This document shows, piece by piece, positions 5,967-51,493 of a stretch of 64,000 nt of DNA. The notes under the pieces are model-generated. The model saw nothing but the letters and a program-made list of their open reading frames with translations, searched no databases and was not told the origin of the DNA. Source of the DNA: an uncultured Methanosarcinales archaeon (GTDB lineage: Archaea > Nanobdellota > Nanobdellia > Woesearchaeales > JAGLXL01); assembly GCA_964384425.1 (NCBI GenBank), contig CAYLKE010000004.1, positions 6,511 through 70,510 of the forward strand, written 5' to 3'. Each line of letters opens with the position of its first letter. The first letter of the stretch is position 1. The position numbers were made by a program, and so were the translations under genes.

Positions 5967-8900
5967 ATGAAATCCAAAAGAATTTTTATTTATAGTTTAT
6001 TTATACTAATTATTATTCTCTCCTTATTTTCAATTTTATTCTTACCTAGCAAAATAACTGGTAATTTTGTAATAATAACAACTTCTTCTGCAAGAATAGA
6101 TCCAGGAATAAGAGTCATTTATGACACTTTCGATGGTTCTACAACTGATTTTCTTTATCTTAATGATACTCAATTATCGTCCATAGAAAATATGGTGGTT
6201 GAAAATAGTTCAAATGGAAAAATTATATTTAATGGGAGTATAAATCTTGCATCTGATGCAATTTTAAATATAGTTGATTTAGATAATGGGATAACTATTT
6301 CTTCTGATTCAATATACATAAATACAACATATCTTTCAAGTTTAACAGGATACACAACAATAACTTTTTACAACGAATCATTTACTAAACCTGTTGCATA
6401 TAAAAATGGACAATTATGTCCTAATTCAGAATGTTATTTTGTAAGTTATGATGGAGAAAATGCAACTTTTAATCTTTCATTTGATAGTACACCTTATACA
6501 AACATAACATTGGGTGAGGCCTATCCAAAATCTTGGGATAGCATAGAATATCCAGAAGGAGTTTATGAACCATACAACATTGGACTAGTGGGAACACACT
6601 TACATAGATTTGGAATTAAATTTGTAAATATGAATGCTTCTTCAGGAGATGTTTTGGGATGTTACATAAAACAATCTAATGGAAGTGTGTTTTTCTTAAA
6701 TGAAACTTTATTAACTTCATATAATTCACAAAATTATAGTTTAAATTATACTGTTGCAAATTCAGATAATATTTCTAAATTTACTAGGTGGGAAGGAATC
6801 AATTGTACTTTAACAAACTCCACTTCACTAAAATCTCTTGATAATGATTATTATTTTTCACGTCTAAAAAGATCTATATTTGTGCACGGAAATAATTGGA
6901 CAAAATTTAATACTGTTGATGATGATGCATATCTTGCAAGTAGATGTTTTTTAGGAATACCAAAAAGATATTTTAACAATTCCCACTATTGTGATTATGT
7001 AGGAGACGTTGCATTTGCAGTAAGCATGGCAACTGGTTTTGCAATAGAGGGTTATTGTGATGATGGGATAGATAATGACAATAATGGAAATACAGATTGT
7101 GACGATAGGTATTGTAGGGGTATCCCATATACTTGCATAGATCATAGATATGCAGGAGATCCATTTTATGGAGAATGTCAAAATGGTGTATGCTGGGAGA
7201 CGAAAAACTTTGGTGGAAGAGATATAACTTATTATTACAATAGATATGTCCAGCCTGGTGGAACGTTAAAAATAAGATTTGAAGGTGGAGATTATAATAC
7301 AACAAAACCAATTTCATATGCAATAACTGATTTACTTTCATATGATAGCTATGGTTATTATTCAGAAGGAAATGGACTTGGAACAATAAGCACAACTGAC
7401 TCAAGTGTCGTTGCTGAAGATGGAAATGGTAGAGTAGGAGATGCTGACATGGTTTTATGGGTAAACTTAAGTAGTGCATATACTGATGGAAACGAATATA
7501 ATGTTTCTATTTATTTGGTTCATGAAGGATATGATTTATTAGTTGCAGGAATACCTATAGTTATTGATTCTACTGCACCAAGCGTATGGGACGAATCTGT
7601 TACTGGAAAAAATAGAACTAGTCCTTGTTCAAATTCAATTGATGAAGATATTGATTACAATACAAGCTGTCAAGACTTAGATTGTAATGGTTCAATCGGA
7701 GGAAGTGATTGTGCAAGAGGAAATGCATACTGTGAATTTGGATCAGAGACAACATGTAATGATTGTTTTGATAATGAAGGAGATGGAAATTATGATTGTG
7801 CTGATTTAGATTGTGATTTAAAATCTGGATCTTCAACAAATTCAAGTATAAAATGTCATTATTATGGTGAAGGAAATCAAACACAATATAATTCATCATT
7901 ATATAGTTGGGTATTTGCTTGTGTTGATCTTTTTGATAATGATCAAGATGATGCTGTTGATTGTGAAGACAGAACATTCTGTTGGCAGAGGGGAGGAACA
8001 AGCCTAACTTTACCTTGTCCTGCTTATGAAAATAACACTGCTTTATGGTGTCACGATGGTATAAATAATGACTATGACAATAGGACAGACTGTGCTGATT
8101 ATGATTGTTGGAATGTTTCATATGCAAATGCAACATATTCTGCAAGATGTCCTGATAATGAATCACAAGATAAGTTTGGAAACTTTAAACCTTTACAATG
8201 TTTTGATTCATTGGATAATGATTTAGACAGCCCTATACAAAAATATTCTGGATTGGGGACAAATATTGATTGCGCAGATATAGATTGTAATGGAGTAACA
8301 CATCCCACATTAAATGTTACTTGTATGCCCTTTGAGTATAATCTTTCATTAAACATAACGCCAGAGTATTGTATGGATAATCTTGATCTTGATGGAGATA
8401 AATCTCTGGGTTGGCCAAATGGAGGATTAGATTGTAATGATCCTGACTGCAATAAACAATTTGGAAGTTGTGGACCATGTCCTTCATTTGAATATATGTC
8501 TTATGGATCTTGTGCAGATAATATTGATCAAGATACAGACAGACCAACATCCTACATAGATTGTGAAGATACAGATTGTTTAGGCAAAATGGGTTCAAAA
8601 GATTCATCACAGGTTTGTGCTGCTTCTGAAAATACTATTACTTTATGTTCTGATGAATTTGATAATGATGCAAATGGAAATACTGATTGTGCAGACAGCA
8701 ATTGTAATGGAATAGGAATATGTGAATACTCAACTGAAACAACTTGTAATGATCAACTAGATAATGATGGTGATGGTGATACTGATTGTCTAGATAGTGA
8801 TTGTTATGGGATTGGAAGTTGTGCATCGATGTCATGGACAGCAGGAAGTTGTTTGGTTGTGCCTTACAATACTAGCTCTTTATCAATAGGTTCAACAAGT

Positions 8901-11900
8901 GTAACATTCTATCATACAAGCAGACATCATATTAATAATAAATATTATATGAATTTTGCAAGTACTGAAAGTTATTCATCTGTAACAATAACTGTTGGAG
9001 ATGCAACTGATTCAAATGATTATTTTCCTTACAATGCTTCAACATGCACATTAAGTGGAGACACAAATAAAATTAACTTAGTGACTTCTCAAGATGAAGT
9101 TTTTCAGTTACAAGACAGAGGGAGTTTTACAGGAGGATTTAATGTAACTATTGAATGTGATGGACTAAGTAGTGCACAGACTAACACATACCCTATTATA
9201 ATTTCAAATAGCTTACAATCTAGTGCAACAGAAAGTGCTGATGAATCATACACAGCAGTTGTATATGAAAACACTGCTCCATCTGTTTCATCTGTTGAGG
9301 TAGATTTATGGGATGGGAGTGTTGCAGAAGTGAATTATGGAGATCCTATATCCTTAAGAGCAATACCTTTAAATGATCCATCAAATATTTGTAAATGTAG
9401 TTTTAACATTGGAGGAAATGTTTACAATAGTTCAGATGGAAATTGCATATATGAACATGATGTTTATGATGACACTTCTTATACATTATCTGCAGCTGCA
9501 AGAGATGGAGCATATAATTTAGGTACTTATGGGGGCACAAGAATTGTTCCTGTAAATGTACTTCCTGTACAAGATTTTTTTGCAATAAGCAGAAATTATC
9601 CTTTCTTTAATTCAACTGCTGGAGAAAGTATAGTTTTTACCTCACTATTCAAGTCTGCAACATCAGGAAGTATTAGTTCTTGTAATGCATGGATAGAGGA
9701 TGAAAGTGGAAGTATTGTTTTAAGTAAAAGTGTAACTCCTGTTGGAAGTAATAGTGCAGCATGCAATAATAATTTTAACACATCTTCATTAGCAGACGGA
9801 ATTTACTATGTCCGTATGAATGCAACTGATGAGGATGGTGACACTGTAACTTCAGATAAAAAATTATTTTATGTCTGTTCAAATTACACTTCCAGTGGAA
9901 GTAATTGGAATTGTTCAATCGCAGACTTTGATCAAGATGGTCAACCAGATCAATGTGATTACGCATTACAATACGATGTTGGAGTTGATTTAGCATTTAA
10001 TTTTGAATTCATTAGTAATTATTCAATTAAAATTACATCTATTTACGAAGCTGTAACTGACTTTTTATTATTAGAAAAAACAACAAACGCATCTTTCCTT
10101 GATTTTAAACTTCCAACAGGTGAGTATGATGTAAATATTGATGTTTTCGACGGAAACTTAATAGTACACTTAAATGATTTAAACTTAACTATTGAAAGTA
10201 ATTATACTTTTGCGTTTGATATGTATGATGGTGTAAATGGTATAAGGGCTTATGCTTTTTCACCTGGAGTTAATTTTAGTAGTGCTTATGTTAAATTCGA
10301 TTATTCAGAACTTGATTATGTCAGAGAAGCTAATTTAGTTTTATATAAGTGTGATGGTCATAATTATAACTTTACAACCAGAAGATGTATGAATGATTCT
10401 TGGTATTTACTTAATTCAACAATAAATTCCTCAACACAACATATATTAGCAGATGTTGATAATTTTTCAGGATTTTATATTTATGAAAATCCTCCAACTC
10501 CAAAATGGACAAGATTATTGCATCCAGAAGGAGTTTATGAACCTTATAACGCCGGACTTCCTGGAAAACATCTACACACATTTGCACTTAAATTTGAAAA
10601 CTTAAATACCTCTCTTGGAACTGAATTAGAATGTCTCATAGAACAATCAGATGGAACTTTATTTAATGTAACTGAACCTGTAACTCAGAACACTCTTTAT
10701 TCAAACTTTTCATTAAATTATACTATTAAAAATACAGACAATGTTTCCAAATTAACTCCTTGGGAAATTGTAAATTGTACTTTGTATCGGTCAGATGGAG
10801 TTATTGAGTTTTCAGATGACACTGAATTTAGTAATGCAACATACAATCTTACTCATTTAAACAGAAGTATTTTTGTTCATGGAAATGAATGGACGAGATT
10901 TGACACATCAAATGATGATGCTTACAGGGCAGCAAGATGTTTCTTAGGTTTCCCAAAAAGATATTTTAATAATTCTTATTATTGCGATTATGTGGGGGAC
11001 GTTGCATTTGCAGTTAGTATGAGTTTAGGAATGAATTTAGAAGGAAATTGTCAAGATGGAATAGATAATGATGGAAATGGAGATGTAGATTGCGATGACA
11101 GATATTGTCAAGGATTACCTTACTCTTGTAAGAATCATGTTTATGCAGGAGATCCATTTGAAGGAACATGTAGTAATGGAATATGTACAGAGTCAAGAAC
11201 ATTTGGTGTTCCTGCAAAAACATTAACATATAGTTTTACAAAATATGTAAAACCTAATGGAACATTCAAGGTCAGATTTAATGGTGGGAGTTATAGCACA
11301 TCGTCACCTGTTCTTTATAGTGTAACTGATTTAAATGGTGTTGATTCATATGGCCATTACAATAGAACAGGATATGATTCACTTGAATCTTTTAGTTCAA
11401 CTGCAACAAGTGTTGCTACTGAATCTTCTTCAGGACATAGTGGGAATGTAGATTTTGTTATGTGGATTAATTTAAGTGATTATAGTGAAGGTAATTACAA
11501 TATTTCATATTACTTTGTACATAATGGACAAGATCTTTATGTTCAAGGAATTCCAATTGTTGTGACAGATAATGCTGTTTCAAATTGGGATGAATCCGAA
11601 ACTGGAACATATACAACATTGCCTTGTGCAAATAGTGCAGATGAAGATTTAGATTACATTGAAGGATGTTTAGATTTAGATTGTGATGGAGAAATTGGTG
11701 GGACAAATTGTGTTGGTGGAAATGCATATTGTGAATATGGAACAGAGTTAACATGTTATGATTGTTTTGATAATGATGATAATGGAGCTTATGATTGTGG
11801 AGAAAGTGTATGTGATTTAAAAAGAGGAAGTTATAATGATGCAAGTATTCTTTGTCATTACAATGGAGAAGGACATAGTAGTTATGATAGTTCAATATAT

Positions 11901-14750
11901 AGTTGGGCAAATGCCTGTAATGATGGATTTAATAATGATCAAGAAGATGGAACAGATTGTTATGATACAACATTTTGTCGGGGAAGAGGAGGAAGTAGTA
12001 CAACATTACCTTGTCCTGCAAATGAGAGTAATGATCCAAGTTGGTGTTTTGATAGCATAGATAATGATTTTGATGGAATGATGGATTGTAATGATCTTGA
12101 TTGTAGTGGTGTTATTTATGGAGATAATAAATGTCCTACAAAAGAAATGGAAACAACTTCAAATGAAAATAGTTCATTACAATGTTTTGATAGCATAGAT
12201 AATGATTATGATGGTAGTTCAGATTGTTCTGATACAGCAGATTGTAGAGGAGTTGTCAATTTATTAAATTGGCAAGTATGTCATTCAAGTGAATTTAATT
12301 CAAGTTATAGTTTTTCTTCAATGTTTGGAGGATATAATACTATTGAATATACTGCACCTACAAATATTGTTGCATGTTTAAATAATATAAATGATGATGG
12401 TGATGGAGATGTAAATTGTTATGATGATGATTGTAATGGAAAAAGTGGAGAATGTGGACCTTGTCCAGATAGAGAAGATGTTTCATTTACTTCATGTTCA
12501 AATAATTTGAATGATGATTACAGTGGGGGAAGTGATTGTGTAGATAGTGATTGTTATGGGTTATTTGGAGAATTTACATCATCTAGTGGATCTGTAAAAT
12601 GCCAAGCAAGTGAAAATAATAATACTTTATGTTCTGATGAATATGACAATGATGCAGATGGAAATGTTGATTGTGAAGATAATGAATGTGATGGGTACAG
12701 TTATTGCGAACATTCAACTGAAACAACTTGTAATGATGAATATGACAATGATGCAGACGGAAAAACGGATTGTGCAGATAGTGATTGTTTTGGAGTTAGT
12801 GGGTGTAGTGCAATGTCTTGGACAGCAACAAGTTGTACTGCAATACCTGCAAGTGGATCTTTATCATTAGGATCTGTTTCTGCAAGTTATCTTACAAAAC
12901 ACCATATTAATTCAAATTATACAATATCTTTTACTGGATCAGGTGATTATGATTCAGTCACTGTAACTTTAGGGGACGCAACAAATAGTTCCTTATATTT
13001 TCCTTATAATGCAACACAATGTGTTTTAAGTGGAGACACAGATAAAGTAAAATGGGTATCTTCTCAAAATGTTGTAGGTCAGTTACAAGATAATAGTTCT
13101 TTTACAGGAGGATTTACTGCAACACTAACTTGTCCTGGACTTTCAACAGTACAAACTAATTCATATTCAATAACTACATCTAATCAAGTCGATGGTTCAA
13201 CAGAAAGCTATTCAGATACATTATCAACAACAACTTATGAAAATACACTTCCTAGTGTTAATGCTTTAGAACAATCACATATAAATTTAGAATATAATGA
13301 AGGATTTTATTTTAGAGGAATACCTTCAAATGATCCAAGTGGAATATGCACTTGTCTTTACAATATTTCTGGAACACAATCACTAGTTGATGGGAATTGT
13401 ATTAAAGCAATGAATTTACAGACTATAGATACCTCATATAATCTAGGTGTTGCTGCAAAAGATGGTGCAAGCAATATTGGAAGTTACACTTCATTTGGAA
13501 GTTATAATGTTAATGTGATGATAATTGCAAAATCAGTAAGTATAGGAGATTATTTTTATAATTCAAGTTCATTAAATTCAATATCTGTATCAGCTGATTT
13601 CCAGACTGCAGATAATGGGCAAGTAGTGGGATGTAATGCATCTATAATAAATTCAACAGGTCAACAACAAAGTATTATTGTTATGAATATTAGTGGTACA
13701 AATGATGTAACTTGTAGTGGGAACATAGATATAAGTTCACTTTCAGATGGAGATTATATTGTTGAATTTTTTGCAGTAGATGAAGATGGAGACAATGCAT
13801 CTATTGAAACTGTATTTAGCATATGTTCTGATAATACATCATCACCTATGTGTGCATATATGGATTTAGATAAAGATGGAATACCTGACAATAAAGATTG
13901 TAAATATCTTCTTCCATTTATGGATTATCCTTATCAACTTAAATTTAATTATGTTTATTCATCATCTGAAAATCCTTCACCTAAGTATTATATCTATAAA
14001 ACTGGATATAATTATTCTCTATTTAATAAAAATTTAGCAGGAGCATCTTCAACAGAATTTGATATTGTTGAAGATATTTATGATTTTGTAGTGTTAAATT
14101 ATGATGATAAGTTTTCAGTTAGATTTAATAGTGTTAATATAACTCAAAATGAGACATACACAATAAAATTAGACAATCTTGACAATACAAATACTTATGG
14201 ATATAAAACATATGCAATTGATATAGATCCAGAAAAAAATTCAGATGCAATTGTAACTGTGAGTTATGATGGATTAAATTATACTAATGAAACAAATATA
14301 GATCTTTATGTTTGTTCTGATTGGAATATGGGAACAAGAAGTTGTAAAACTAATTGGGTTGTTTCAAACTCTACACAATATTTTGCTGAAAATCTTTTTA
14401 GAACTACTTATGGTGGATCATTTCAAGCAGGATTTTCAATTGCAGATTCACAACCTATAAAAACAACTCCTCCTCCTGTAGAAGAAGAGGAAGAGATTCC
14501 ACGTAGAAGTGGATCAGGACCATTACCTTTCCAATTACAAGATTTGATATATCAAATTTCAACTAGTGAAATAAAATTATCTGATGATTTTGGAAAAAAA
14601 GAAACAAAACAAGAACTAGTATCATTTAGTATAAATAAAAAACAATTCGATTATAAAGAAGTTATAAAAGAATCAACTAAGTTTTATTTTAGTAAATTGA
14701 TTATTGCATCATTTAATTGGATATTGTCATTGTTTTTATTTTTATTCTAA
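5967..14750 (+). CDS. Giant cell-surface protein (2927 aa) with N-terminal signal/anchor, two large internal repeat units, many Cys-flanked Asp-rich DxDxDG (putative Ca-binding, TSP3/dockerin/EF-hand-loop-like) repeats, and a C-terminal hydrophobic anchor
   Basis: Uninterrupted 8.8-kb ORF with an N-terminal hydrophobic segment. Repeated C.D..DND.[DN]G..DC.D.DC motifs (e.g. CNDQLDNDGDGDTDCLDSDC). C-terminal hydrophobic tail (LIIASFNWILSLFLFLF). Abundant N-x-S/T sequons. Confidence 0.8.
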   Translation: MKSKRIFIYSLFILIIILSLFSILFLPSKITGNFVIITTSSARIDPGIRVIYDTFDGSTTDFLYLNDTQLSSIENMVVENSSNGKIIFNGSINLASDAILNIVDLDNGITISSDSIYINTTYLSSLTGYTTITFYNESFTKPVAYKNGQLCPNSECYFVSYDGENATFNLSFDSTPYTNITLGEAYPKSWDSIEYPEGVYEPYNIGLVGTHLHRFGIKFVNMNASSGDVLGCYIKQSNGSVFFLNETLLTSYNSQNYSLNYTVANSDNISKFTRWEGINCTLTNSTSLKSLDNDYYFSRLKRSIFVHGNNWTKFNTVDDDAYLASRCFLGIPKRYFNNSHYCDYVGDVAFAVSMATGFAIEGYCDDGIDNDNNGNTDCDDRYCRGIPYTCIDHRYAGDPFYGECQNGVCWETKNFGGRDITYYYNRYVQPGGTLKIRFEGGDYNTTKPISYAITDLLSYDSYGYYSEGNGLGTISTTDSSVVAEDGNGRVGDADMVLWVNLSSAYTDGNEYNVSIYLVHEGYDLLVAGIPIVIDSTAPSVWDESVTGKNRTSPCSNSIDEDIDYNTSCQDLDCNGSIGGSDCARGNAYCEFGSETTCNDCFDNEGDGNYDCADLDCDLKSGSSTNSSIKCHYYGEGNQTQYNSSLYSWVFACVDLFDNDQDDAVDCEDRTFCWQRGGTSLTLPCPAYENNTALWCHDGINNDYDNRTDCADYDCWNVSYANATYSARCPDNESQDKFGNFKPLQCFDSLDNDLDSPIQKYSGLGTNIDCADIDCNGVTHPTLNVTCMPFEYNLSLNITPEYCMDNLDLDGDKSLGWPNGGLDCNDPDCNKQFGSCGPCPSFEYMSYGSCADNIDQDTDRPTSYIDCEDTDCLGKMGSKDSSQVCAASENTITLCSDEFDNDANGNTDCADSNCNGIGICEYSTETTCNDQLDNDGDGDTDCLDSDCYGIGSCASMSWTAGSCLVVPYNTSSLSIGSTSVTFYHTSRHHINNKYYMNFASTESYSSVTITVGDATDSNDYFPYNASTCTLSGDTNKINLVTSQDEVFQLQDRGSFTGGFNVTIECDGLSSAQTNTYPIIISNSLQSSATESADESYTAVVYENTAPSVSSVEVDLWDGSVAEVNYGDPISLRAIPLNDPSNICKCSFNIGGNVYNSSDGNCIYEHDVYDDTSYTLSAAARDGAYNLGTYGGTRIVPVNVLPVQDFFAISRNYPFFNSTAGESIVFTSLFKSATSGSISSCNAWIEDESGSIVLSKSVTPVGSNSAACNNNFNTSSLADGIYYVRMNATDEDGDTVTSDKKLFYVCSNYTSSGSNWNCSIADFDQDGQPDQCDYALQYDVGVDLAFNFEFISNYSIKITSIYEAVTDFLLLEKTTNASFLDFKLPTGEYDVNIDVFDGNLIVHLNDLNLTIESNYTFAFDMYDGVNGIRAYAFSPGVNFSSAYVKFDYSELDYVREANLVLYKCDGHNYNFTTRRCMNDSWYLLNSTINSSTQHILADVDNFSGFYIYENPPTPKWTRLLHPEGVYEPYNAGLPGKHLHTFALKFENLNTSLGTELECLIEQSDGTLFNVTEPVTQNTLYSNFSLNYTIKNTDNVSKLTPWEIVNCTLYRSDGVIEFSDDTEFSNATYNLTHLNRSIFVHGNEWTRFDTSNDDAYRAARCFLGFPKRYFNNSYYCDYVGDVAFAVSMSLGMNLEGNCQDGIDNDGNGDVDCDDRYCQGLPYSCKNHVYAGDPFEGTCSNGICTESRTFGVPAKTLTYSFTKYVKPNGTFKVRFNGGSYSTSSPVLYSVTDLNGVDSYGHYNRTGYDSLESFSSTATSVATESSSGHSGNVDFVMWINLSDYSEGNYNISYYFVHNGQDLYVQGIPIVVTDNAVSNWDESETGTYTTLPCANSADEDLDYIEGCLDLDCDGEIGGTNCVGGNAYCEYGTELTCYDCFDNDDNGAYDCGESVCDLKRGSYNDASILCHYNGEGHSSYDSSIYSWANACNDGFNNDQEDGTDCYDTTFCRGRGGSSTTLPCPANESNDPSWCFDSIDNDFDGMMDCNDLDCSGVIYGDNKCPTKEMETTSNENSSLQCFDSIDNDYDGSSDCSDTADCRGVVNLLNWQVCHSSEFNSSYSFSSMFGGYNTIEYTAPTNIVACLNNINDDGDGDVNCYDDDCNGKSGECGPCPDREDVSFTSCSNNLNDDYSGGSDCVDSDCYGLFGEFTSSSGSVKCQASENNNTLCSDEYDNDADGNVDCEDNECDGYSYCEHSTETTCNDEYDNDADGKTDCADSDCFGVSGCSAMSWTATSCTAIPASGSLSLGSVSASYLTKHHINSNYTISFTGSGDYDSVTVTLGDATNSSLYFPYNATQCVLSGDTDKVKWVSSQNVVGQLQDNSSFTGGFTATLTCPGLSTVQTNSYSITTSNQVDGSTESYSDTLSTTTYENTLPSVNALEQSHINLEYNEGFYFRGIPSNDPSGICTCLYNISGTQSLVDGNCIKAMNLQTIDTSYNLGVAAKDGASNIGSYTSFGSYNVNVMIIAKSVSIGDYFYNSSSLNSISVSADFQTADNGQVVGCNASIINSTGQQQSIIVMNISGTNDVTCSGNIDISSLSDGDYIVEFFAVDEDGDNASIETVFSICSDNTSSPMCAYMDLDKDGIPDNKDCKYLLPFMDYPYQLKFNYVYSSSENPSPKYYIYKTGYNYSLFNKNLAGASSTEFDIVEDIYDFVVLNYDDKFSVRFNSVNITQNETYTIKLDNLDNTNTYGYKTYAIDIDPEKNSDAIVTVSYDGLNYTNETNIDLYVCSDWNMGTRSCKTNWVVSNSTQYFAENLFRTTYGGSFQAGFSIADSQPIKTTPPPVEEEEEIPRRSGSGPLPFQLQDLIYQISTSEIKLSDDFGKKETKQELVSFSINKKQFDYKEVIKESTKFYFSKLIIASFNWILSLFLFLF
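6540..13930 (+). repeat. Intragenic tandem duplication: two diverged ~3.9-kb copies (approx. 6540-10500 and 10510-13930) inside the 2927-aa gene
   Basis: Protein segments starting EYPEGVYEPYNIGLVGTHLH… and HPEGVYEPYNAGLPGKHLH… stay collinear over >1100 aa. Shared blocks include RSIFVHGN.WT.F.T.DDAY.A.RCFLG.PKRYFNNS.YCDYVGDVAFAVSM and …CSDE.DNDA(N/D)GN.DC…. Confidence 0.7.
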
Positions 14751-15266
14751 TTTGATTTTTATTCTCTAGTTTTATTTATTAGTTATTAACAAAACAACAA
14801 CAAACAAAAACAGAATAAAATAATATAAAAAAATACTAAACAAGATATCGACTAATAACAATCAATAACAAACAATATCAAAAACAAAAAAGAACAAAAT
14901 ACTAAACCAGATAATAACCAATAACAAAACAACAACAATAAAAACAAAGACTAATACAATATTACACAAAATAATAAACAATAAGAAAAAGAAAAAAACA
15001 AAAGAAAGACTAATAACTCTACAACAACAATAAAAACAAAGACAAATACAATATCACACAAAATAATAACCCATAACAAAACAATATCAAACAACAACAC
15101 AAAACCAAAATTAACATAATATCACACAAAATAATAACTCATAACAATACAATAACAAACAAAACAAAGACTCATAACAATACAATATCGCACAAAATAT
15201 TAAACAATAACAGAATAAAATAATATAAAAAATAATACTAAACAAATAACCATTTGATTAAACGAA
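14751..15266. repeat. G-poor A/C-rich low-complexity block of degenerate ~60-90-bp tandem repeats, bracketed by a ~34-bp direct repeat (14811-14844 and 15211-15246)
   Basis: About 0.5 kb between convergent genes composed almost entirely of A and C on the + strand. Recurring units such as acaaagact(a/c)ataacaatacaatat(t/c)(a/g)cacaaaataataa. Terminal copies read cagaataaaataatataaaaaa(a/ta)atactaaacaa. Confidence 0.6.
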
Positions 15267-17407: not shown

Positions 17408-17728
17408 ATGGATGAATTAAATAAAAAAGAGATTGAAAATCATTCAGATGATGTAAAGAAGATAATTAATAATATGTCTCTTGTAAAAGAGTTTATATCA
17501 GAATGGCAGATTTATATGAATAATATTGTTGAAGATATGTCATCCTTGGCTAAATTAGTAAAACAATATGATATTGTAAAAGGAGATATTAGACCAATAA
17601 ATATTGAAAAACAAAAAAATGTCATCAATAAAATTATTGAAAAACATGATATGTTTGTTGATGATGTTGAAAATAACAAGCAAAGATTTGAAAAAATTAA
17701 ATCAATAATAAATAACCTTAATGAATAA
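17408..17728 (+). CDS. Small charged coiled-coil protein of unknown function
   Basis: 106-aa ORF. Its stop overlaps the extended ThrRS reading frame. Confidence 0.4.
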   Translation: MDELNKKEIENHSDDVKKIINNMSLVKEFISEWQIYMNNIVEDMSSLAKLVKQYDIVKGDIRPINIEKQKNVINKIIEKHDMFVDDVENNKQRFEKIKSIINNLNE

Positions 17729-17759
17729 ATTTAAAATATTTAATATGGGAGTGGTTTTA

Positions 17760-19487
17760 ATGAAAATAGATTTTGAAAATAAAGAAGTATTTTGGCATAC
17801 TAGTGCTCATGTGTTGGCACAAGCAGTAAAGAAATTGTTTCCTGATGCAAAGCTTGCTATTGGTCCAACAATTGAAAATGGATTCTATTATGATTTTCAC
17901 ACAGAACATACATTCACACCTGAAGATCTTAAAAAGATTGAAAAAGAGATGCGAAGGATTATCAAGAAAGGATATGATATTACTTATAAGGATTTATCAA
18001 TTAAAGACGCTAAAAAATTATTTGAGAACAATAAATTTAAGATTGAACTTATTAATGAACTTGCTGAAGCAGGTGAAAAAAAAGTTAGAGTTTATTATCA
18101 TGAAGATGATTTCTATGATTTATGTAGGGGTCCTCATTTAGAAACTACAAGAAATATTACTGCTTACAAATTGTTAAAAGTATCTTCTGCATATTGGAGA
18201 GGAGATTCCAATAGGGAAAGTTTGCAAAGAATATATGGGATAACTTTTCCTTCAAAAGAACAGATGAAAGAATACATTAATTTTTTACGTGAAGCTGAGA
18301 AAAGAGATCATAGAAAAATTGGAAAGAAATTAGATTTATTTTCATTTCATGAAGAAGCACCAGGATCACCTTTTTTTCACGATAAAGGAAATTATATTTT
18401 TAGACAATTAGTTAATTATATGACCGAATTATTAGATGAAAGAGGATATGAACTTAATAGAACTCCTTTAATAATGAATGAATCTCTCTGGAAGCAATCT
18501 GGTCATTATGATCATTATAAAGAAAATATGTATTTTACTGAAATAGATGGACAGGAATTTGCTGTTAAACCAATGAATTGTCCTGGAAATTTATTAGTTT
18601 TCAAAGCTAATTCACATTCATATAGAGAGCTTCCCATAAAAGCTGGGGAATTTGGAATTGTTCATAGACACGAATTAAGAGGTGTTTTATCTGGATTATT
18701 CCGGGTGAGGTTTTTTACACAAGATGATGCTCATGTTTTCTGTACAGAGGAACAGATTGAAGAACAAGTAAAGGAATTGATTGATTTAATTGGTATAACT
18801 TACAAAACCTTTGGATTTAGTTATAATCTTGAACTTTCAACACGTCCTGAAAAAGCAATTGGATCGGATGATATGTGGAATAAGGCAGAATCTGCTTTGA
18901 AAAATGTTCTTGAAAAGAATAAAATTGATTATAAACTAAATCTTGGAGATGGTGCATTTTATGGACCTAAAATTGATTTTCATGTAAAAGATGCAATTGG
19001 AAGAAGTTGGCAGTGTGGGACGATTCAATTAGATTTTTCTATGCCTGAAAAATTTGATTTAAAGTATAAAGGAAAAGATGGAGAAGATCATAGACCTGTT
19101 ATGATACATAGAGCAATTTATGGAAGTTTAGAAAGATTCATGGGAATCTTAGTAGAGCATTACGCAGGAAAATTTCCTTTATGGATGAACCCAAATCAAA
19201 TTGTTGTGTTACCAATAACAGATAGGCATATTGATTATTGTAATGAAATATATTGTGAGATAAAGAAGAATTGTTTTAGAGTGGATGTTGATGATAGAAG
19301 AGTTTCTCTTCCTAAAAAAATTAGAGAAGCACAACTTTCTCAATATAATTATATCTTAGTTATTGGAGATGATGAAACTACAAAAGGAGTTATCAATATC
19401 CGTACAAGAAATAATGAAGTTCATGGTGAGAAACAATTAAATGAATTTATTAAAGAAATTGTGAAAGAAAGAGATGAGAAGAAATGA
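17760..19487 (+). CDS. thrS: Threonyl-tRNA synthetase (class II), N2 editing/SAD + catalytic + anticodon-binding domains; lacks an N-terminal TGS domain
   Basis: The HTSAHVLAQAV and CRGPH zinc-binding motifs of the SAD/N2 domain are present, followed by class II catalytic motifs. Probable start is the ATG at 17760 (MKIDFEN…) preceded by GGGAG about 9 nt upstream; the track ORF extends to 17721. Confidence 0.85.
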   Translation: MKIDFENKEVFWHTSAHVLAQAVKKLFPDAKLAIGPTIENGFYYDFHTEHTFTPEDLKKIEKEMRRIIKKGYDITYKDLSIKDAKKLFENNKFKIELINELAEAGEKKVRVYYHEDDFYDLCRGPHLETTRNITAYKLLKVSSAYWRGDSNRESLQRIYGITFPSKEQMKEYINFLREAEKRDHRKIGKKLDLFSFHEEAPGSPFFHDKGNYIFRQLVNYMTELLDERGYELNRTPLIMNESLWKQSGHYDHYKENMYFTEIDGQEFAVKPMNCPGNLLVFKANSHSYRELPIKAGEFGIVHRHELRGVLSGLFRVRFFTQDDAHVFCTEEQIEEQVKELIDLIGITYKTFGFSYNLELSTRPEKAIGSDDMWNKAESALKNVLEKNKIDYKLNLGDGAFYGPKIDFHVKDAIGRSWQCGTIQLDFSMPEKFDLKYKGKDGEDHRPVMIHRAIYGSLERFMGILVEHYAGKFPLWMNPNQIVVLPITDRHIDYCNEIYCEIKKNCFRVDVDDRRVSLPKKIREAQLSQYNYILVIGDDETTKGVINIRTRNNEVHGEKQLNEFIKEIVKERDEKK

Positions 19488-19693
19488 ATGATAAAGAAAG
19501 ATTGCAAAAATTAAGAGGTGCAGTAGAGATTCTTTTTAATTATTCTCTTGATGTGACTGTAAATACATCTTCTATTAAGGATTCCAAAAAAAGAGGAAAA
19601 TTGCATGAATATTTTTTTCAATTAAATCAAAAAGCAAAAGAAATGAGAATGATATTAGATAAGATAGATTACGAAATAAATAAAAAACATTAA
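19484..19693 (+). CDS. Small hypothetical protein (69 aa), 4-nt overlap with thrS stop
   Basis: ATGA start/stop overlap with thrS. Charged and helical. Confidence 0.35.
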   Translation: MNDKERLQKLRGAVEILFNYSLDVTVNTSSIKDSKKRGKLHEYFFQLNQKAKEMRMILDKIDYEINKKH

Positions 19694-20205
19694 AGTTTCC
19701 TACTATCAATTGCCCAATGAAGTAATGCTTGACGTTGTTTAGGTCGACAAGTAAATTGTTTTCTTTTGCAATTCTTTTTTACTTGTGCAATATGTCTTAT
19801 CATTGCTTTCCATCTTTTTATTTGTCTTTCATCGTCTTCATGGCGTCTTCCCATATAATATCTACAATACCATTGAAACCATCCTCTTGGATCATCATTA
19901 TGTATCCATCCTTTTTCTTTCCAATACCAAAGCGACTTAGACGCATTTATTTTGAAATAGTTTAATTCTGGATCATGTTTCTTGTGATTAAGTTTTGCTT
20001 TTTTAAACCATGATTTTGGAAATTCATTTTGGCAGTCAGTCATATACTTCCCACCAAAAACACCTAATTCAAGCATTTGTTTTGGTGTAAGGTCAGGAGT
20101 AAAATCTGGGTGAAAGTTCTTTCCTTCTGGTTCTGTTAAGAAGTAGGTGTAATTCTTCTGCATCAAGTCATTCACAACTACTTTTTTTGGTTTTTTTCTT
20201 GACAT
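19690..20205 (-). CDS. Conserved hypothetical Trp/Arg-rich protein (171 aa)
   Basis: Complex, non-repetitive sequence with conserved-looking blocks (ELGVFGGKYM, WIHNDDPRGWFQWYCRYYMGRR). Shares a ttaa stop overlap with the convergent upstream ORF. Confidence 0.5.
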   Translation of the reverse strand: MSRKKPKKVVVNDLMQKNYTYFLTEPEGKNFHPDFTPDLTPKQMLELGVFGGKYMTDCQNEFPKSWFKKAKLNHKKHDPELNYFKINASKSLWYWKEKGWIHNDDPRGWFQWYCRYYMGRRHEDDERQIKRWKAMIRHIAQVKKNCKRKQFTCRPKQRQALLHWAIDSRKL

Positions 20206-20343: not shown

Positions 20344-21069
20344 ATGGAAGAAAATATGAACAATATTAATGAAAATACAGATGATTATGAAGACATTATT
20401 GTTGAGGAAGATCTTAATGATTCTGAAGAAAATTCTGGAGGAAGAATTCCTTTGTTAGGAGATTATTTTCCAGATGTTGAAGTACAGACAACACATGGGA
20501 CAATGACATTACCTGATGTATATGAAGGAAAATGGTTTGTGCTTTTTAGTCATCCAGCAGATTTCACACCTGTTTGTACAACTGAATTCGTTGCTTTTCA
20601 GAAAAGATATGATCAGTTTAAAGCATTAAATTGTGAATTAATTGGATTGAGTATTGACCAAGTTTTTTCACATATCAAATGGAAAGAATGGATCAAAGAT
20701 AAATTACAAGTAGATATTCAATTCCCTATAATTGCAGATAATGGGGATCTTGCTGAAGAATTAGGATTAGTGCATCCTGGAAAAGGAACAAATACTGTCA
20801 GAGCTGTATTTGTAGTTGACTCAAAAGGTATTATTAGAACAATATTATATTATCCTCAAGAACTAGGAAGAAATATGGATGAGATTGTAAGAGTTGTCAA
20901 AGGATTACAAAAAACAGATAATGAGAAAATAGCTCTTCCTGCAAATTGGCCTAATAATGAATTGATACAGGATAAGGTAATTATTCCACCACCAACTTCA
21001 GAAAAGGAAGTTGCAGAAAGAAAACAACAGTATCCAAATTGTTTAGACTGGTGGTTCTGTTATAAATAA
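20344..21069 (+). CDS. Peroxiredoxin (Prx6/1-Cys-like archaeal type with C-terminal Cys pair), with a ~35-aa acidic N-terminal extension
   Basis: GGAGGGG Shine-Dalgarno upstream. Peroxidatic-Cys motif FTPVCTTE. The C-terminal …CLDWWFCYK Cys pair is typical of archaeal Prx. Confidence 0.85.
21039..21069. repeat. Copy 1 of a 31-bp direct repeat (ttgtttagactggtggttctgttataaataa), the 3' end of the peroxiredoxin gene
   Basis: Identical to 21928-21958 except for one mismatch. Confidence 0.7.
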
Positions 21070-21145
21070 TTATTTTTTTTATTTTTAATATACAAAAAAT
21101 TTAAATAGTACATTGTATTACATTGTAACACAAAGGGTTTATACA

Positions 21146-21409
21146 ATGGAAACACTATCTATAAGATTTCAAGAAAATATTATGAAGAAAATTGATTCAG
21201 TAATAAAAAGCAATTTCTTTAATTCTAGAACTGAGTTTGTTAGAGAAGCTGTTAGAGATAAATTATCTGAATTAGAGAAAGAATGGGCTATTAATGAATT
21301 TTTAAAATTACATGGAAGTATTAAAAGAAAAACAAATAAGACTGATAGACAAATAAGAGAACAAGTCAGTAAAGAAATGTTAGCTGAATTAGAAAAAAAG
21401 TTTGGTTAA
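21146..21409 (+). CDS. Ribbon-helix-helix (CopG/RHH) DNA-binding protein, antitoxin-like
   Basis: The N-terminus (METLSIRFQENIMKKID…SRTEFVREAVRDKL) fits a beta-strand plus two helices RHH fold. AAGGG Shine-Dalgarno-like 9 nt upstream of the ATG at 21146; the track ORF starts at a TTG at 21113. Confidence 0.55.
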   Translation: METLSIRFQENIMKKIDSVIKSNFFNSRTEFVREAVRDKLSELEKEWAINEFLKLHGSIKRKTNKTDRQIREQVSKEMLAELEKKFG

Positions 21410-21443
21410 ATTTCTTCTGGTCTCTTTGCTTTAGTTATGTCAT

Positions 21444-21824
21444 TTAGATAATTAAAAAATGTTTATCTCTTGTAATCATTATTGCATTGTTATCTCTAGC
21501 TTGAATTGCATACAAACAATCTCCTAAAGGAAGATTTCTTTTTATTGAAAGATTTTTAGCTTCTTTAAATGTCTTTTCACTAATTTCTATTTTAATTATT
21601 TTGCCAGAAATAAATAATAAATTTAACATATAATTAATGTCTTGTTCAGAATATGTTGTTTTTAATTCTTTTATGGTTGTATTAGAAAATAATATTTTAT
21701 TTTTTGATTTAATTATCTTATTGATTAGTGCAGTTGCATATTGCCCTATTGGATTTCCTACTAAACTAATTCTGTTTTCAAAAAAGTCCATCCAAATACA
21801 TGTATCTAATAAATATTTTCTCAT
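21444..21824 (-). CDS. PIN-domain protein (VapC-like ribonuclease toxin)
   Basis: N-terminal LLDTCIWMDFF… with acidic residues spaced as in PIN domains, and a C-terminal …ITRDKHF. Confidence 0.55.
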   Translation of the reverse strand: MRKYLLDTCIWMDFFENRISLVGNPIGQYATALINKIIKSKNKILFSNTTIKELKTTYSEQDINYMLNLLFISGKIIKIEISEKTFKEAKNLSIKRNLPLGDCLYAIQARDNNAIMITRDKHFLII

Positions 21825-21927
21825 GTAAGAAAAAGAATATTTTAACTTATAAATGCTACACGAGGACTTGTCTAGTGTGTCCAGTGTATATTTCTGGAAA
21901 GAATAGAATATTTTTAATAAAAAATAT

Positions 21928-21958
21928 TTGTTTAGACTGGTGGTTTTGTTATAAATAA
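21928..21958. repeat. Copy 2 of the 31-bp direct repeat (ttgtttagactggtggttttgttataaataa)
   Basis: Matches the last 31 nt of the prx gene, including its stop codon, 858 bp downstream. Confidence 0.7.
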
Positions 21959-21990: not shown

Positions 21991-22335
21991 ATGAAAAAGA
22001 AAAATAAAATAATTTTATTTTCTGTATTATTGATTGTGGTTTTAATATTAATTAGTTTTTTTAGTTTTAGATTAATTAATAGATATGACAATTATATAAA
22101 ACATAAAGATTTTTTTAAACAAGATAATGTCCATATAGAGTCTTGGATGGCAGTTAGTGTTGTTAAAAATAAATTCAATTTAAGTAATCAAGATTTATTT
22201 GAAGACTACAATATTGAAGATAAATTTTGGTATAATAGATACACTCTTGATGAGATATGTGAAAAATTTAATTTGGATTGTGAAAAATACGTTGAAGAAC
22301 TTAATCAAAAAGTAAAGGAAAAGAAAAATGATTGA
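21991..22335 (+). CDS. Small membrane-anchored hypothetical protein
   Basis: 114 aa with an N-terminal transmembrane helix, then a charged domain. Confidence 0.45.
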   Translation: MKKKNKIILFSVLLIVVLILISFFSFRLINRYDNYIKHKDFFKQDNVHIESWMAVSVVKNKFNLSNQDLFEDYNIEDKFWYNRYTLDEICEKFNLDCEKYVEELNQKVKEKKND

Positions 22336-22337
22336 AA

Positions 22338-22949
22338 ATGGTTGAAATTCTTTCTTTTACATTGGCAGGTATAGGAGCATTGGCATTATTTTTTCTAATA
22401 GTTTATGCTGCTTCTTTTGCAATACCAACAGGTGCAATGTTTTTTATTATATCATTAGGAGCATCTTTAATATCTTTCATAGATTATTTTTGGGTTGTAT
22501 TGATTACATTACTTGCAACTATTGCAGGAGATATTTCAACATATTTAGTTTCTAGAATTTTTAGAGAAAAGATTCATGGTTTTTTAAGTAAATACAAATG
22601 GTTTCTAAAAAGAGAAAAAGAAGCACAAAGACAATACCATAAACATGGTGCTTATGCAGTTTTCATAACCAGATTTTTTGCTGCTCCTATTGGTCCTTTT
22701 CTTAATTATATAAGTGGTTTTCAAAAATTAAAATTTAGAAAATTTTTTGTTGCAGTTGTGAGTGGAGAGATAATTTATTCTGCTTCATATGTAGGATTTG
22801 GATTTTTCTTTAAAGAGACATGGAGAGATTTGATTGTATTGGTAAATGATTTTACAATATTATTTGTTTTGATTGTTGTGTTGGGTTTTATATTGTATAA
22901 ATTACTTGGATATTGTAGGAGAAAGAAAAAATGCAAGATAAAAAAATAA
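22338..22949 (+). CDS. DedA/VTT (SNARE-associated Golgi protein)-family membrane protein
   Basis: Polytopic protein whose motifs YHKHGAYAVFITRFFAAPIGPFLNYISGFQ resemble DedA family signatures. ATG at 22338 lies immediately after the upstream stop; the track start at 22332 is a TTG. Confidence 0.5.
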   Translation: MVEILSFTLAGIGALALFFLIVYAASFAIPTGAMFFIISLGASLISFIDYFWVVLITLLATIAGDISTYLVSRIFREKIHGFLSKYKWFLKREKEAQRQYHKHGAYAVFITRFFAAPIGPFLNYISGFQKLKFRKFFVAVVSGEIIYSASYVGFGFFFKETWRDLIVLVNDFTILFVLIVVLGFILYKLLGYCRRKKKCKIKK

Positions 22950-23581
22950 ATATTGTATTAAAAAAATTAAATAAATTTGTTTCTAAGTTTAGACTGCCAT
23001 TAGGAGAGACAATTAAAAATAAACATAAATATGCTTTTCATGTTTTAGTTTCTACAATATTATCTGCGCAAACAAAAGATACTTTGAATGAGAGAGTTCT
23101 TCCAATCTTATTTAAGAAAGTTAAGAACTTTAAAGATCTTGAAAAGATTTCTCTTTCTGATTTGCAGTCGATAATTAGACCAATTAATTATTACAAAAAT
23201 AAATCCAAATACTTGAAAGCACTTCCTTCTGCTATTAAAGAATTTAAAGGAAAAGTTCCTGATAACATTGATGATCTGGTTAAGCTACCTGGTGTAGGAA
23301 GAAAGACAGCAAACTTAGTTGTAGGATTAGTATTTGATAAAGATAGTATTTGTGTGGATACACATGTTCACAGAATTTGTAATAGATTAGGATATGTTGA
23401 AACAAAAACTCCATTACAGACAGAGATGGCTTTGAGAAAGAAGCTTCCTAAAAAATGGTGGAAAGATATTAATAGAATTCTAGTTATGTTTGGACAGAAT
23501 CATTGTTTTCCTAGAAATCCTAAATGTAAAACTTGCCCTGTTCGTATGTATTGTAAATATAAGAAAGAAAAATCATATTAA
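22931..23581 (+). CDS. nth: Endonuclease III (HhH-GPD DNA glycosylase/AP lyase with [4Fe-4S] cluster)
   Basis: HhH-GPD motif LPGVGRKTANLVVG…VDTHVHRI and C-terminal Cys-x6-Cys-x2-Cys-x5-Cys (CFPRNPKCKTCPVRMYC). Confidence 0.85.
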   Translation: MQDKKINIVLKKLNKFVSKFRLPLGETIKNKHKYAFHVLVSTILSAQTKDTLNERVLPILFKKVKNFKDLEKISLSDLQSIIRPINYYKNKSKYLKALPSAIKEFKGKVPDNIDDLVKLPGVGRKTANLVVGLVFDKDSICVDTHVHRICNRLGYVETKTPLQTEMALRKKLPKKWWKDINRILVMFGQNHCFPRNPKCKTCPVRMYCKYKKEKSY

Positions 23582-37812: not shown

Positions 37813-38376
37813 ATGAGTAATATAACTCAAAAATGGGTAAATGTATTTAAAGCTTATTCATCAAATTATAATGGAAAGCTTTCTGCTAGTCAGATTTCTA
37901 AAAATACAAAAATACCTCAACAAACAGTTTCCAGAATAATGAATCAAATGGTTAAAGATAATGTTGTTAGATTTATTAAAGAGGGAAGAAATAAATTATT
38001 CTATCTTGATAAAAATGCAGTTACCACAAAACCTCTTGTTAAAATAATAGAATGCCAAAAATCTGTTGATTTTTTATTGAAGAATAAAAATATTTCTTTG
38101 ATTGTTAAAGATTTACTTAAGAAATTTAAATGTTTTATTATATTCGGAAGTTATGCTTCTGGTAAAAACAAAAAAAGTTCTGATTTGGATATTTTGATAT
38201 TTTCTAAGAAGAAATCAATAAGAGATATTAAATCTAAATATTCTATTGATATAAATGAACATTTTATTACTTTTGCTGAATTTAAGAGAATGAAAAATAA
38301 TACTTTAATTAAGGAAGTTATAATGAATCACGTGTTATTTGGGGATTTTGACAATGTAATTGAGGTGTTTTTATGA
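37813..38376 (+). CDS. Minimal nucleotidyltransferase (MNT) with N-terminal winged-HTH
   Basis: NTase motif IIFGSYASGKNKKSSDLDILIF (hG[GS]x9-13DhD). N-terminal HTH-like segment (LSASQISKNTKIPQQTVSRIMNQMV). Confidence 0.65.
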   Translation: MSNITQKWVNVFKAYSSNYNGKLSASQISKNTKIPQQTVSRIMNQMVKDNVVRFIKEGRNKLFYLDKNAVTTKPLVKIIECQKSVDFLLKNKNISLIVKDLLKKFKCFIIFGSYASGKNKKSSDLDILIFSKKKSIRDIKSKYSIDINEHFITFAEFKRMKNNTLIKEVIMNHVLFGDFDNVIEVFL

Positions 38377-38810
38377 AGATTAAATGGTGTTTTGAACAAA
38401 AAGGTGTTGAACTTATTGATAAAAAAGAACATCTTTCTGAATCTTATATGAAAGAAGCAGACGAAACACTTGAAAATATGTATTTAACTAAAGGAAAATG
38501 GAAAGTAATTACTGCTTATTATTCTTGCTATAATGCAATTTATTCTTTGTTGATGAAAGTAGGTATAAAATGTGAAATACCTGATTGCACTATTGAATTG
38601 ATGGAATTATTTGGATTTAGTTTGGATGATATTGAGTTTATGAAAGATCTGAAAGACGATAGAATTAAAAACCAGTACTACTTAAAGAATATTGAACTAA
38701 AAAATGAATCAAAAGTTAAAGAATTTGTTTTAAAATGTAAGGAAAAACTTTTGATGAATGATTCAGATGTTGAGAATATAAGAAAAAAGATAAAAGAGAT
38801 GATTGAATGA
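38373..38810 (+). CDS. HEPN-domain protein, cognate partner of the upstream MNT
   Basis: 4-nt overlap with the MNT gene. Helical 145-aa protein with an R-x2-N-x2-Y motif (DDRIKNQYYLKN) in place of the canonical Rx4-6H. Confidence 0.5.
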   Translation: MKIKWCFEQKGVELIDKKEHLSESYMKEADETLENMYLTKGKWKVITAYYSCYNAIYSLLMKVGIKCEIPDCTIELMELFGFSLDDIEFMKDLKDDRIKNQYYLKNIELKNESKVKEFVLKCKEKLLMNDSDVENIRKKIKEMIE

Positions 38811-40893: not shown

Positions 40894-41835
40894 TTATAAA
40901 TACCCAAAATAAACTTCAAAGAATTTCTTAAAAGTGTTTTCAAATTTATTTAAAATAAATCTAATCAACTTATTGTTATGTTTATTATCAAAAGCACTTA
41001 AACAATCAAAATATGCTTTTCTCATTGTTTTTCTTATTATCAATGGAGGATATCCTTTTTCCATTAACATAGCATTTAATAAAATTCTTCCAATCCTTCC
41101 ATTTCCATCTTCAAATGGATGAATGTTTTCAAATTTTCCATGAAATATCGAACATAGTTCTAAAATGTGTTTTTTATCTTTATTTTTTTCATACCATCTG
41201 ATTAGTTTATCTATTTCTTGTTCAACTTTTTCAGGAGGTGTTGTGCGGAGGTTAGTCATAACAATAAAATTAGGAAATTTTTTAAAACCAGTTGAGACAC
41301 CTGTATCTTTAACAATTTCTGAATGTAATTTAATTATTGATTTTTTATTGATTTTAATTTTTTTATTAAACAATAATTCAATAACATTTCTCATATTTCT
41401 TGTTTCATACACTTCCCTTAGGTCTTTATCTTTTGGAATAAGGTTATCTGTCATAAACATAGTTACATCTTTTAATGTTAATGAGTTTCCTTCAATTGCA
41501 TTAGTTTCATAAGTAAAGTTTGCTGTAAATCTGTCAAGAATGTCTTTTTTTTGGTTTTTAGTTAATTTATTCATTAAATGTTTATACTTAACTTTAATTG
41601 TTTCTATTTTTTTAATATTTATTAAAGAATTTTTTTCTTTAGTTTTTTCTATAAATTTGATATTTTCTTCTATTTCTTTATTTAACAAATATTCTTTTAC
41701 TTCTTTTTTATTTACATCAGATTTATTTTTAATCATTTTTGATACTTTCTTTATTTTTTGATTAGGTAATCTAAATGAATGTTCTGCATAAAGGTACTTA
41801 TGGGACTTAATTGTTTTAGTTTGGACACTAACCAT
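40894..41835 (-). CDS. Fic/Doc-family protein (AMPylation-type Fic domain)
   Basis: Canonical Fic motif HPFEDGNGRIGR within a helical domain. Confidence 0.8.
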   Translation of the reverse strand: MVSVQTKTIKSHKYLYAEHSFRLPNQKIKKVSKMIKNKSDVNKKEVKEYLLNKEIEENIKFIEKTKEKNSLINIKKIETIKVKYKHLMNKLTKNQKKDILDRFTANFTYETNAIEGNSLTLKDVTMFMTDNLIPKDKDLREVYETRNMRNVIELLFNKKIKINKKSIIKLHSEIVKDTGVSTGFKKFPNFIVMTNLRTTPPEKVEQEIDKLIRWYEKNKDKKHILELCSIFHGKFENIHPFEDGNGRIGRILLNAMLMEKGYPPLIIRKTMRKAYFDCLSAFDNKHNNKLIRFILNKFENTFKKFFEVYFGYL

Positions 41836-50971: not shown

Positions 50972-51493
50972 ATGGATAATATCTTTAAAACAAATCAATA
51001 CAGAATGTTAGAGTTATTTATAGAAAATCCCAGAATAGATTATTCTGCTAGAGGTATGGCTAGAGAATTAGGGATAAATCATGTTACAGTGTTAAAATAT
51101 TTAAAAGAGTTATTAAAATTAGATTTAATAAAAGTAAAAAATGCTCTATATCCTCTTTATTATGCAAACACTCAAAATAAAAATTATCAATTTTATAAAA
51201 TAAATAAAATTGTTTTTGATATTAAACAATCTAGGGTTGTCGAATATATACATAATAAAACTTTAGCTTCTGCAATAGTATTATTTGGTAGTTGTTCAAA
51301 AGGAACTTATAATAAAGAAAGCGATATAGATATATTTGTTGAATCTACTCAAAAGAAACTTAATTTATCTAAATATGAGAAAATATTAAAGAAAAAAATA
51401 AATCTTATTTTTCATTCTGATATACAAAAACTTTCCGAGAATCTGAGAATAAATGTTATAAATGGTATTACTTTATATGGCAATATAAGGTAA
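50972..51493 (+). CDS. Minimal nucleotidyltransferase (MNT) with N-terminal winged-HTH (second copy)
   Basis: NTase motif LFGSCSKGTYNKESDIDIFVE. N-terminal HTH-like segment (ARGMARELGINHVTVLKYLKEL). Confidence 0.65.
   Translation: MDNIFKTNQYRMLELFIENPRIDYSARGMARELGINHVTVLKYLKELLKLDLIKVKNALYPLYYANTQNKNYQFYKINKIVFDIKQSRVVEYIHNKTLASAIVLFGSCSKGTYNKESDIDIFVESTQKKLNLSKYEKILKKKINLIFHSDIQKLSENLRINVINGITLYGNIR

Follow-up and report, generated by a model that had tools for sequence, protein, structure and literature searches.

Organization of the prx locus

The stretch analyzed here, termed the window, comprises 64,000 nucleotides of contig CAYLKE010000004.1 (positions 6,511–70,510; assembly GCA_964384425.1) and represents an AT-rich (27.6 % GC) archaeal genome of the DPANN type, encoding FEN1/XPG, TYW2/Trm5 and ZPR1-type proteins as well as several giant open reading frames (ORFs). 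Its peroxiredoxin gene (prx) is followed by a pair of convergent genes, one for a ribbon-helix-helix (RHH) DNA-binding protein and one for a PIN-domain nuclease, and this pair is enclosed by two copies of a direct repeat, the first of which forms the 3′ end of prx (Table 1). A preceding sequence-only reading had described a 31-bp duplication of the prx 3′ end, recurring 858 bp downstream with one mismatch and bracketing the RHH and PIN genes; coordinates and mismatch were confirmed, and both ORFs indeed reside between the two copies.

The repeat (TTGTTTAGACTGGTGGTTCTGTTATAAATAA) corresponds to the final 31 nt of prx, TAA stop codon included, and is found again with 30 of 31 positions identical at a start-to-start distance of 889 nt (gap of 858 nt), the sole mismatch (TTC to TTT) being synonymous (Phe). 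Both edges of the repeat are abrupt, the 5′ edge coinciding with the third base of the Asn codon that precedes CLDWWFCYK. Since Prx homologues from many lineages (67–76 % identity) retain C-x-D-W-W-F-C-x-K at their C-terminus, copy 1 represents native prx coding sequence and copy 2 the duplicate; no residual Prx-like sequence was found upstream of copy 2. The sequence TTATAAATAA in copy 2 ends 32 nt ahead of the ATG of the gene at 21991 and, judged from its position, may serve as TATA box of this gene. As the spacing matches the TATA position in the conserved module promoters described below, the end of prx probably overlapped the downstream promoter already before the insertion.

With regard to the possibility that the repeat is a common motif, only the two copies were detected in the 64-kb window when up to 3 mismatches were allowed, and none in 100 shuffled sequences. 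The flank-repeat score amounts to 28 at the real position, while none of 150 sliding pseudo-modules of the same size in the window reaches 20. Chance similarity or an assembly artefact might be considered in view of the AT-richness, the metagenome assembly and the fact that Prx, RHH, PIN and the downstream protein are each singletons at 90 % identity clustering, all from one contig. Apart from the shuffling and the in-window controls, however, the repeat is higher in G+C than the surrounding sequence, and the longest exact run between its two copies is 18 nt, which is too short for usual k-mer sizes and renders a k-mer assembly artefact unlikely. In addition, related modules display the same pattern in independent assemblies and samples, so that an explanation of this kind appears extremely improbable.

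The RHH gene of the window is intact. Its Pfam matches are marginal (RHH_1 with 21.9 bits at a cut-off of 20.5, and RHH_8), and its NCBIfam matches are confined to the N-terminal RHH of NikR/CdrS. The annotated PIN product comprises 126 aa compared to ~140 aa in the family, the frame being broken after ...TRDKHF within a T6 run. The shifted frame reads FFNYLNDITKAKRPEEI*, matches the C-terminus of the family and ends at 21406, i.e., 4 nt inside the RHH stop. The 126-aa product is on record from both NCBI and Logan sources, and the toxin gene is probably truncated by a frameshift in reality, with the final ~15 codons lost. This truncation suggests that the module is starting to decay, and the window copy may thus be decaying already. 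The insert's GC content (23.1 %) was considered as a mark of foreign DNA and rejected, as the downstream genes have 26 %.

Table 1 Features of the prx locus in the window
Feature	Position	Strand	Basis
Peroxiredoxin (Prx), 241 aa, proposed target gene	20344–21069	+	Pfam AhpC-TSA (E = 1.5e-32), plus 1-cysPrx_C
Direct repeat copy 1, (N)CLDWWFCYK + TAA	21039–21069	+	Sequence comparison
RHH promoter: TATA-like TTTAAATA (21100–21107), operator-like GTACATTGTATTACATTGTAAC (21108–21129)	21100–21129	+	Conserved layout; predicted function
RHH (CopG/NikR-N-type) DNA-binding protein, putative antitoxin/autorepressor	21146–21409	+	Pfam RHH_1, RHH_8
PIN-domain nuclease; annotated ORF 21444–21824 (126 aa), family-length frame to 21406	21406–21824	-	Pfam PIN (E = 2.4e-8)
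T6 homopolymer (A6 on + strand), PIN frame break	21454–21459	-	Frame comparison with family
PIN upstream region: TATA-like ATTTATAAG (complement 21846–21854), near-palindrome TTTCCAGAAA (complement 21891–21901)	21846–21901	-	Sequence
Direct repeat copy 2, orphan, 30/31 identical, contains TTATAAATAA	21928–21958	+	Sequence comparison
Downstream host gene, 114 aa, N-terminal transmembrane segment	21991–22335	+	ORF/domain analysis

The conserved convergent RHH/PIN module

About 85 module loci were recovered from metagenomes with a PIN alignment, and the same layout was encountered on contigs of metagenome-assembled genomes (MAGs) at NCBI. In all of these ~85 loci in which the contig extends far enough, PIN and RHH converge and overlap at their 3′ ends (~8 nt in the PIN homologues, 4–8 nt with the window included). 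The PIN homologues are 41–59 % identical; Woesearchaeota and Nanoarchaeia are among their source names, and TFIIB and aIF2-gamma are encoded on the respective contigs. An RHH partner (34–59 % identical) adjoins every PIN homologue, with RHH identity paralleling PIN identity (e.g., 57 % and 56 % in locus L001). The PIN subfamily comprises 455 cluster representatives at E <= 1e-10, and residues D7, D102 and D120 as well as a conserved Glu are retained among 15 homologues, the three Asp residues being invariant.

The RHH/PIN pair most likely constitutes a toxin-antitoxin (TA)-like addiction pair, in which PIN would act as toxin and RHH as antitoxin and autorepressor. Similar to VapBC, a PIN protein with invariant acidic residues is encoded beside a small RHH protein, operator-like repeats are present at the RHH promoter, and clusters with other TA pairs occur. 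In contrast to the co-directional antitoxin-toxin operon of VapBC, the genes are convergent, possess separate promoters and overlap at their 3′ ends. The PIN protein also attains only 16.9 bits with the NCBIfam VapC model (cut-off 80), its sequence matched no solved structure, and TA activity of the pair is putative.

The region upstream of RHH has a conserved layout in ~65 loci, composed of a TATA box, three TATTAC-type repeats spaced by ~10 nt and then ATGGAA. Across the family, the TATA box (TTTAAATA or TTTATATA) is located ~36 nt ahead of the ATG, and in most loci the arrangement resembles that of a promoter which is leaderless and autorepressed. The predicted RHH promoter of the window contains the same elements, with a leader longer by ~16 nt before the ATG. 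A second recurrent element is a TTCCGGAA-like palindrome (TTCCGGAA or TTTCGAAA), which is enriched 41–80 nt upstream of PIN and 41–60 nt beyond the RHH start. There, it reaches 10–19 occurrences per kb, as opposed to ~2 per kb at the corresponding position of 182 other genes (5- to 9-fold). An explanation as generic promoter motif was rejected, since only 7 % of the control genes carry the motif at that position. The palindrome could be bound by a regulator, reflect a preferred target or mark the terminus of an element; the copy in the window (Table 1) is only a variant.

The extent of the module as a discrete unit emerges from pairwise comparisons. Between loci L092 and L117, a block of exactly 773 nt is 83.6 % identical; it starts 44 nt upstream of the PIN ATG, extends to 45 nt past the RHH ATG and lies between unrelated flanks. 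In loci L151 and L160, homology spans the left flank plus the module and ends 36–40 nt beyond the RHH start. A different context is found in one lineage, L171–L176 (PIN protein P0135), where there is a 4-nt overlap between PIN and the end of the nucleotidyltransferase gene (NTP_transf_2/Polbeta) upstream of it, with the convergent RHH kept; here, the module was apparently captured into the transcription unit of another gene.

Direct repeats bracketing related modules

Flanks of 400 nt on either side of the module were compared at a direct-repeat score cut-off of >=16. Bracketing direct repeats were found in 13 of 67 loci, compared to 1 of 185 control positions shifted by 1.5–3.5 kb within the same loci. 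Not counting a low-complexity A-run, and with L098 and L102 taken together as one locus, 11 of the 13 are independent. The repeats are 19–142 nt long (19–59 nt in most loci), mostly at least 90 % identical, and unrelated between loci, even among modules sharing 77–82 % identity. On the RHH side, the repeat starts 38–76 nt past the RHH start, immediately outside the promoter of RHH, and on the PIN side the distance varies from 8 to ~100 nt.

Several of the repeats lie at the ends of neighbouring genes. In L127, the repeat is formed by the final 28 nt of the gene for ribosomal protein uL16/L10e, stop codon included; in L088, a 448-aa gene contributes its final 21 nt and its stop codon, the geometry being that of the window; and in L104, it starts at the stop codon of the archease gene. 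The 30-nt repeat of L159 constitutes a predicted promoter, ending 8 nt before the ATG of PIN and 7 nt before that of a TctA transporter gene.

Two loci contain arrays. In L091 (1458–3778; also L168 and L169), the units marked off by four copies of a 28-nt repeat are a ParE/DUF7557 pair and two diverged PIN/RHH modules; in L104 (4918–6888), a 59-nt repeat is present three times, its copies delimiting a PIN/RHH module and an ORF6N/Rha-type gene. Within these arrays, the repeats are identical and have sharp ends. Other TA pairs adjoin the module also in L098 and L156, with ParE/DUF7557 and MazE-type/PIN among the TA neighbours.

Direct repeats around foreign DNA could also result from tandem duplication of the prx 3′ end, the inner part of which was later replaced by RHH/PIN via recombination. 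Duplication-substitution was put forward as formal alternative to long target duplication and discussed for comparable footprints within rRNA operons (PMC3457768). Considering that two rare events would be needed at each of at least 11 independent loci, that the boundary at copy 2 is sharp and not preceded by any prx-like remnant, and that most repeats are short, we regard this origin as highly improbable.

Search for recombinases, empty sites and relatives of the locus

The sequence-only reading had ascribed the footprint to an element integrated into the 3′ end of prx, which it regenerated, by analogy with integration at tRNA 3′ ends and with subsequent loss of the integrase or, alternatively, capture of the cassette by a transient element. 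Insertion into the prx 3′ end with regeneration of prx gains indirect but convergent support from the native nature of copy 1, from the recurrence of bracketing repeats above the level of the controls and from repeats that take in the end of an adjacent gene at several loci. The proposed att/integrase route, on the other hand, is not supported, as no recombinase was found in the insert or among 20 window ORFs tested, the repeats are devoid of a common core, and both repeat length and repeat-to-gene distance vary.

In its general form, this route would assume integration by a tyrosine or serine recombinase, the repeats representing attL and attR (attachment sites) at the prx 3′ end and the integrase acting in trans or having been lost, as in a remnant of the CIME (cis-mobilisable element) type. 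The geometry of integration at gene 3′ ends fits, since the repeat ends a conserved gene which is regenerated, and the arrays of L091 and L104, with different cassettes and identical repeats, resemble tandem accretion at one att site. Nevertheless, the 858-nt insert encodes RHH and PIN only, and no recombinase was detected among 20 further window ORFs tested, several of which lack any Pfam match. Likewise, no integrase family recurs among 127 ORFs (225–480 aa) flanking 60-odd related modules, where only rve_3 was encountered, twice. Repeats without any shared core at the 13 loci and over so wide a range of lengths are equally difficult to reconcile with a recombinase, as are closely similar modules (77–82 % identity) with unrelated repeats. 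Moreover, the insert contains no pseudogene remnants and barely exceeds the conserved promoter-to-promoter unit (by 30–60 nt), and viral contigs yielded neither PIN relatives nor a match to the DNA pattern of the Prx C-terminus. Separate decay of larger elements to exactly RHH plus PIN at every locus is implausible. Overall, a recombinase-mediated origin is rather unlikely.

Alternatively, a circular cassette carrying one copy of the prx-3′-end repeat, released from this very site in a related cell, may have entered by a single crossover within the 31 nt (Campbell-type integration). In that case, the repeat would be a trace of an earlier insertion spreading rather than of the original event. 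Such a crossover yields the observed topology, the single synonymous mismatch fits a donor allele differing from that of the recipient, and the arrays with identical repeats fit homology-driven re-use of a site; a similar life cycle was proposed for restriction-modification (R-M) units (PMC2853133). Yet, the origin of the first repeat at many different sites is left unexplained, 31 nt are short as recombination substrate, and neither an excised nor an empty form was observed. We consider a Campbell-type entry at prx unlikely.

Exact look-ups of the window Prx, the window PIN and P0001 matched no encoding contig. Prx homologues share at most 76 % identity and are spread over many phyla, which makes them uninformative for synteny, and relatives of the neighbouring genes are at best 38–53 % identical (threonyl-tRNA synthetase, ThrRS, 53 %; VTT/DedA, 38 %), with synteny around prx being absent. 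The organism thus stands apart from those represented in the databases. Reconstructed empty sites of 12 repeat-positive loci, compared with all collected loci, matched the same occupied loci only. PIN proteins present on multiple contigs (P0127, P0135) displayed the occupied arrangement again in other samples. No tRNA, tmRNA or Rfam family was detected in the window, and no tRNA in the repeat-positive loci.

Proposed mode of insertion

With moderate confidence, we favour the interpretation that a self-contained cassette of ~0.86 kb was inserted behind prx with duplication of a 31-bp target, most likely without an integrase carried by the element. The inserted DNA would correspond to 21070–21927, though its true ends may be situated at any point of the 31-nt repeat. 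A segment reaching from promoter to promoter would have been joined into a staggered or re-replicated target, leaving the locus-specific stretch on both sides. Copy 1 would retain the C-terminus and stop codon of Prx and copy 2 the TATA-like TTATAAATAA, such that both neighbouring genes could remain functional. The uninterrupted prx site, as reconstructed, would read ...CAGTATCCAAATTGTTTAGACTGGTGGTTYTGTTATAAATAAGTTTTTAAACTTC... Once formed, the repeats may permit precise excision and re-entry at the same site in related cells, and arrays of cassettes may have been built up by homologous recombination between them.

Several aspects weigh against this interpretation. About 80 % of the related modules, the pair L092/L117 included, are devoid of a detectable flanking repeat. 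No empty site was seen at prx or at any related locus; hence, the direction of the event as insertion is what we infer. The arrays of L091 and L104, with their identical and sharp-ended repeats, are more easily explained by site- or homology-directed re-use than by random staggered breaks. They suggest that an occupied site is used again by such recombination, and a recombinase acting in trans or Campbell-type recombination thus remains a serious partial rival. At some loci, the repeats carry the PIN promoter and the TTCCGGAA-like palindrome enriched on both module flanks, so that part of some repeats may be functional module sequence instead of pure target. Finally, toxicity, antitoxin activity and binding of RHH to its operator are putative properties.

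A bolder proposal would regard the RHH/PIN pair as an autonomous minimal mobile element, in which PIN, guided by RHH and/or the TTCCGGAA-like palindromes of both outer flanks, itself makes the staggered breaks in the target from which the long duplications result. Though very unlikely in our view, such an element would constitute a recombinase-free selfish class and explain both TA movement and the arrays in DPANN archaea.

Relation to known insertion systems

Integrase-less remnants flanked by att sites are known as CIMEs. As in these and in islands residing at gene 3′ ends, direct repeats flank a small recombinase-less insert and one repeat ends a conserved gene; in contrast to them, the related modules reveal no att core, their repeats vary in length, and no cognate integrase was found nearby. 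Small integrase-less cassettes, in part arranged as arrays with similar repeats (L091, L104), are also reminiscent of integron cassettes and of elements exploiting Xer/dif (IMEX). Unlike in those systems, however, the repeats differ completely between genomes, the repeat in the window is prx coding sequence, and no IntI-like gene was seen. Readings of the repeats as attC or dif sites were both rejected by inspection, with neither an inverse-core/core pair (RYYYAAC...GTTRRRY) nor a dif-like imperfect palindrome being apparent.

The favoured insertion with target duplication most closely recalls the long target duplications of R-M systems (2000, Gene 259:99; Furuta, Abe and Kobayashi 2010, Nucleic Acids Research (NAR) 38:2428, PMC2853133). 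R-M systems inserted without mobility genes are represented by inserts of R-M genes only, flanked by repeats of tens of bp which are unique to the site and in some cases extend over the 3′ end of an adjacent gene (PMC2853133; PMC3874152), e.g., a 46-bp repeat overlapping 15 bp of HI0105 (PMC2853133). These repeats were proposed to aid excision and amplification, the mechanism not being established (PMC2853133). The RHH/PIN loci share with them an addiction-type pair as sole content, the absence of a mobility gene, and long, locus-specific repeats of variable length, some overlapping gene 3′ ends. They differ in cargo (RHH/PIN), in hosts (DPANN-type archaea) and in that some loci are arrays with one shared repeat. 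As the cargo is RHH/PIN instead of R-M, a role of breaks made by a restriction enzyme does not obviously apply, and the prx insertion would represent a variant of R-M-type insertion and not a strict member. Within the limited literature covered, no report on long target duplication for TA modules or DPANN archaea was found.

Reviews describe TA cassettes as highly mobile and offer no mechanism. The prx locus together with its ~85 relatives provides a delimited unit of ~0.77 kb, a dozen independent junctions with long duplications specific to the site, and arrays of different TA cassettes split by one repeat, and this family-wide pattern makes carrier-free mobility of TA pairs directly testable. 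Should the interpretation be confirmed, bacterial R-M systems would be joined by an archaeal nuclease/RHH pair as cargo of insertions with long target duplication, which would argue for a process independent of DNA breaks by restriction enzymes; the junction sequences could then be used to screen reads for empty sites and excised circles. The conserved convergent RHH/PIN architecture also escapes the standard models for TA annotation.

Further features of the window

The downstream host gene heads an overlapping run with genes for a VTT/DedA protein (22332–22949) and endonuclease III (22931–23581). Divergently to prx, the minus strand encodes a 171-aa protein rich in Trp and Arg (19690–20205), which appears strongly conserved and is without Pfam or NCBIfam match. 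The ThrRS (17721–19487) is of bacterial type, its best relatives (41–53 % identity) belonging to two DPANN-type archaeal MAGs and many bacteria.

Other TA-like genes of the window comprise two helix-turn-helix nucleotidyltransferases (NTP_transf_2), each with a small downstream gene (37813–38810 and 50972–51921), which may form MNT/HEPN-like TA pairs, and a Fic/DOC gene (40894–41835). None of these three sites has bracketing repeats. Two adjacent paralogues of 204 and 207 aa (49570–50184 and 50273–50896) without Pfam match share 73 % identity over 270 nt.

A giant ORF of 2927 aa (5967–14750) harbours an internal duplication of ~4 kb, with blocks 70–77 % identical and ~3.97–4.0 kb apart, as well as many Cys/Asp-rich repeats of ~17 codons (TGT..GAT..GATAATGAT..GAT..GATTGT). 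Just downstream (14787–15222), non-coding A/C-rich degenerate tandem repeats with periods of ~10, 33, 60 and 68 nt are present.

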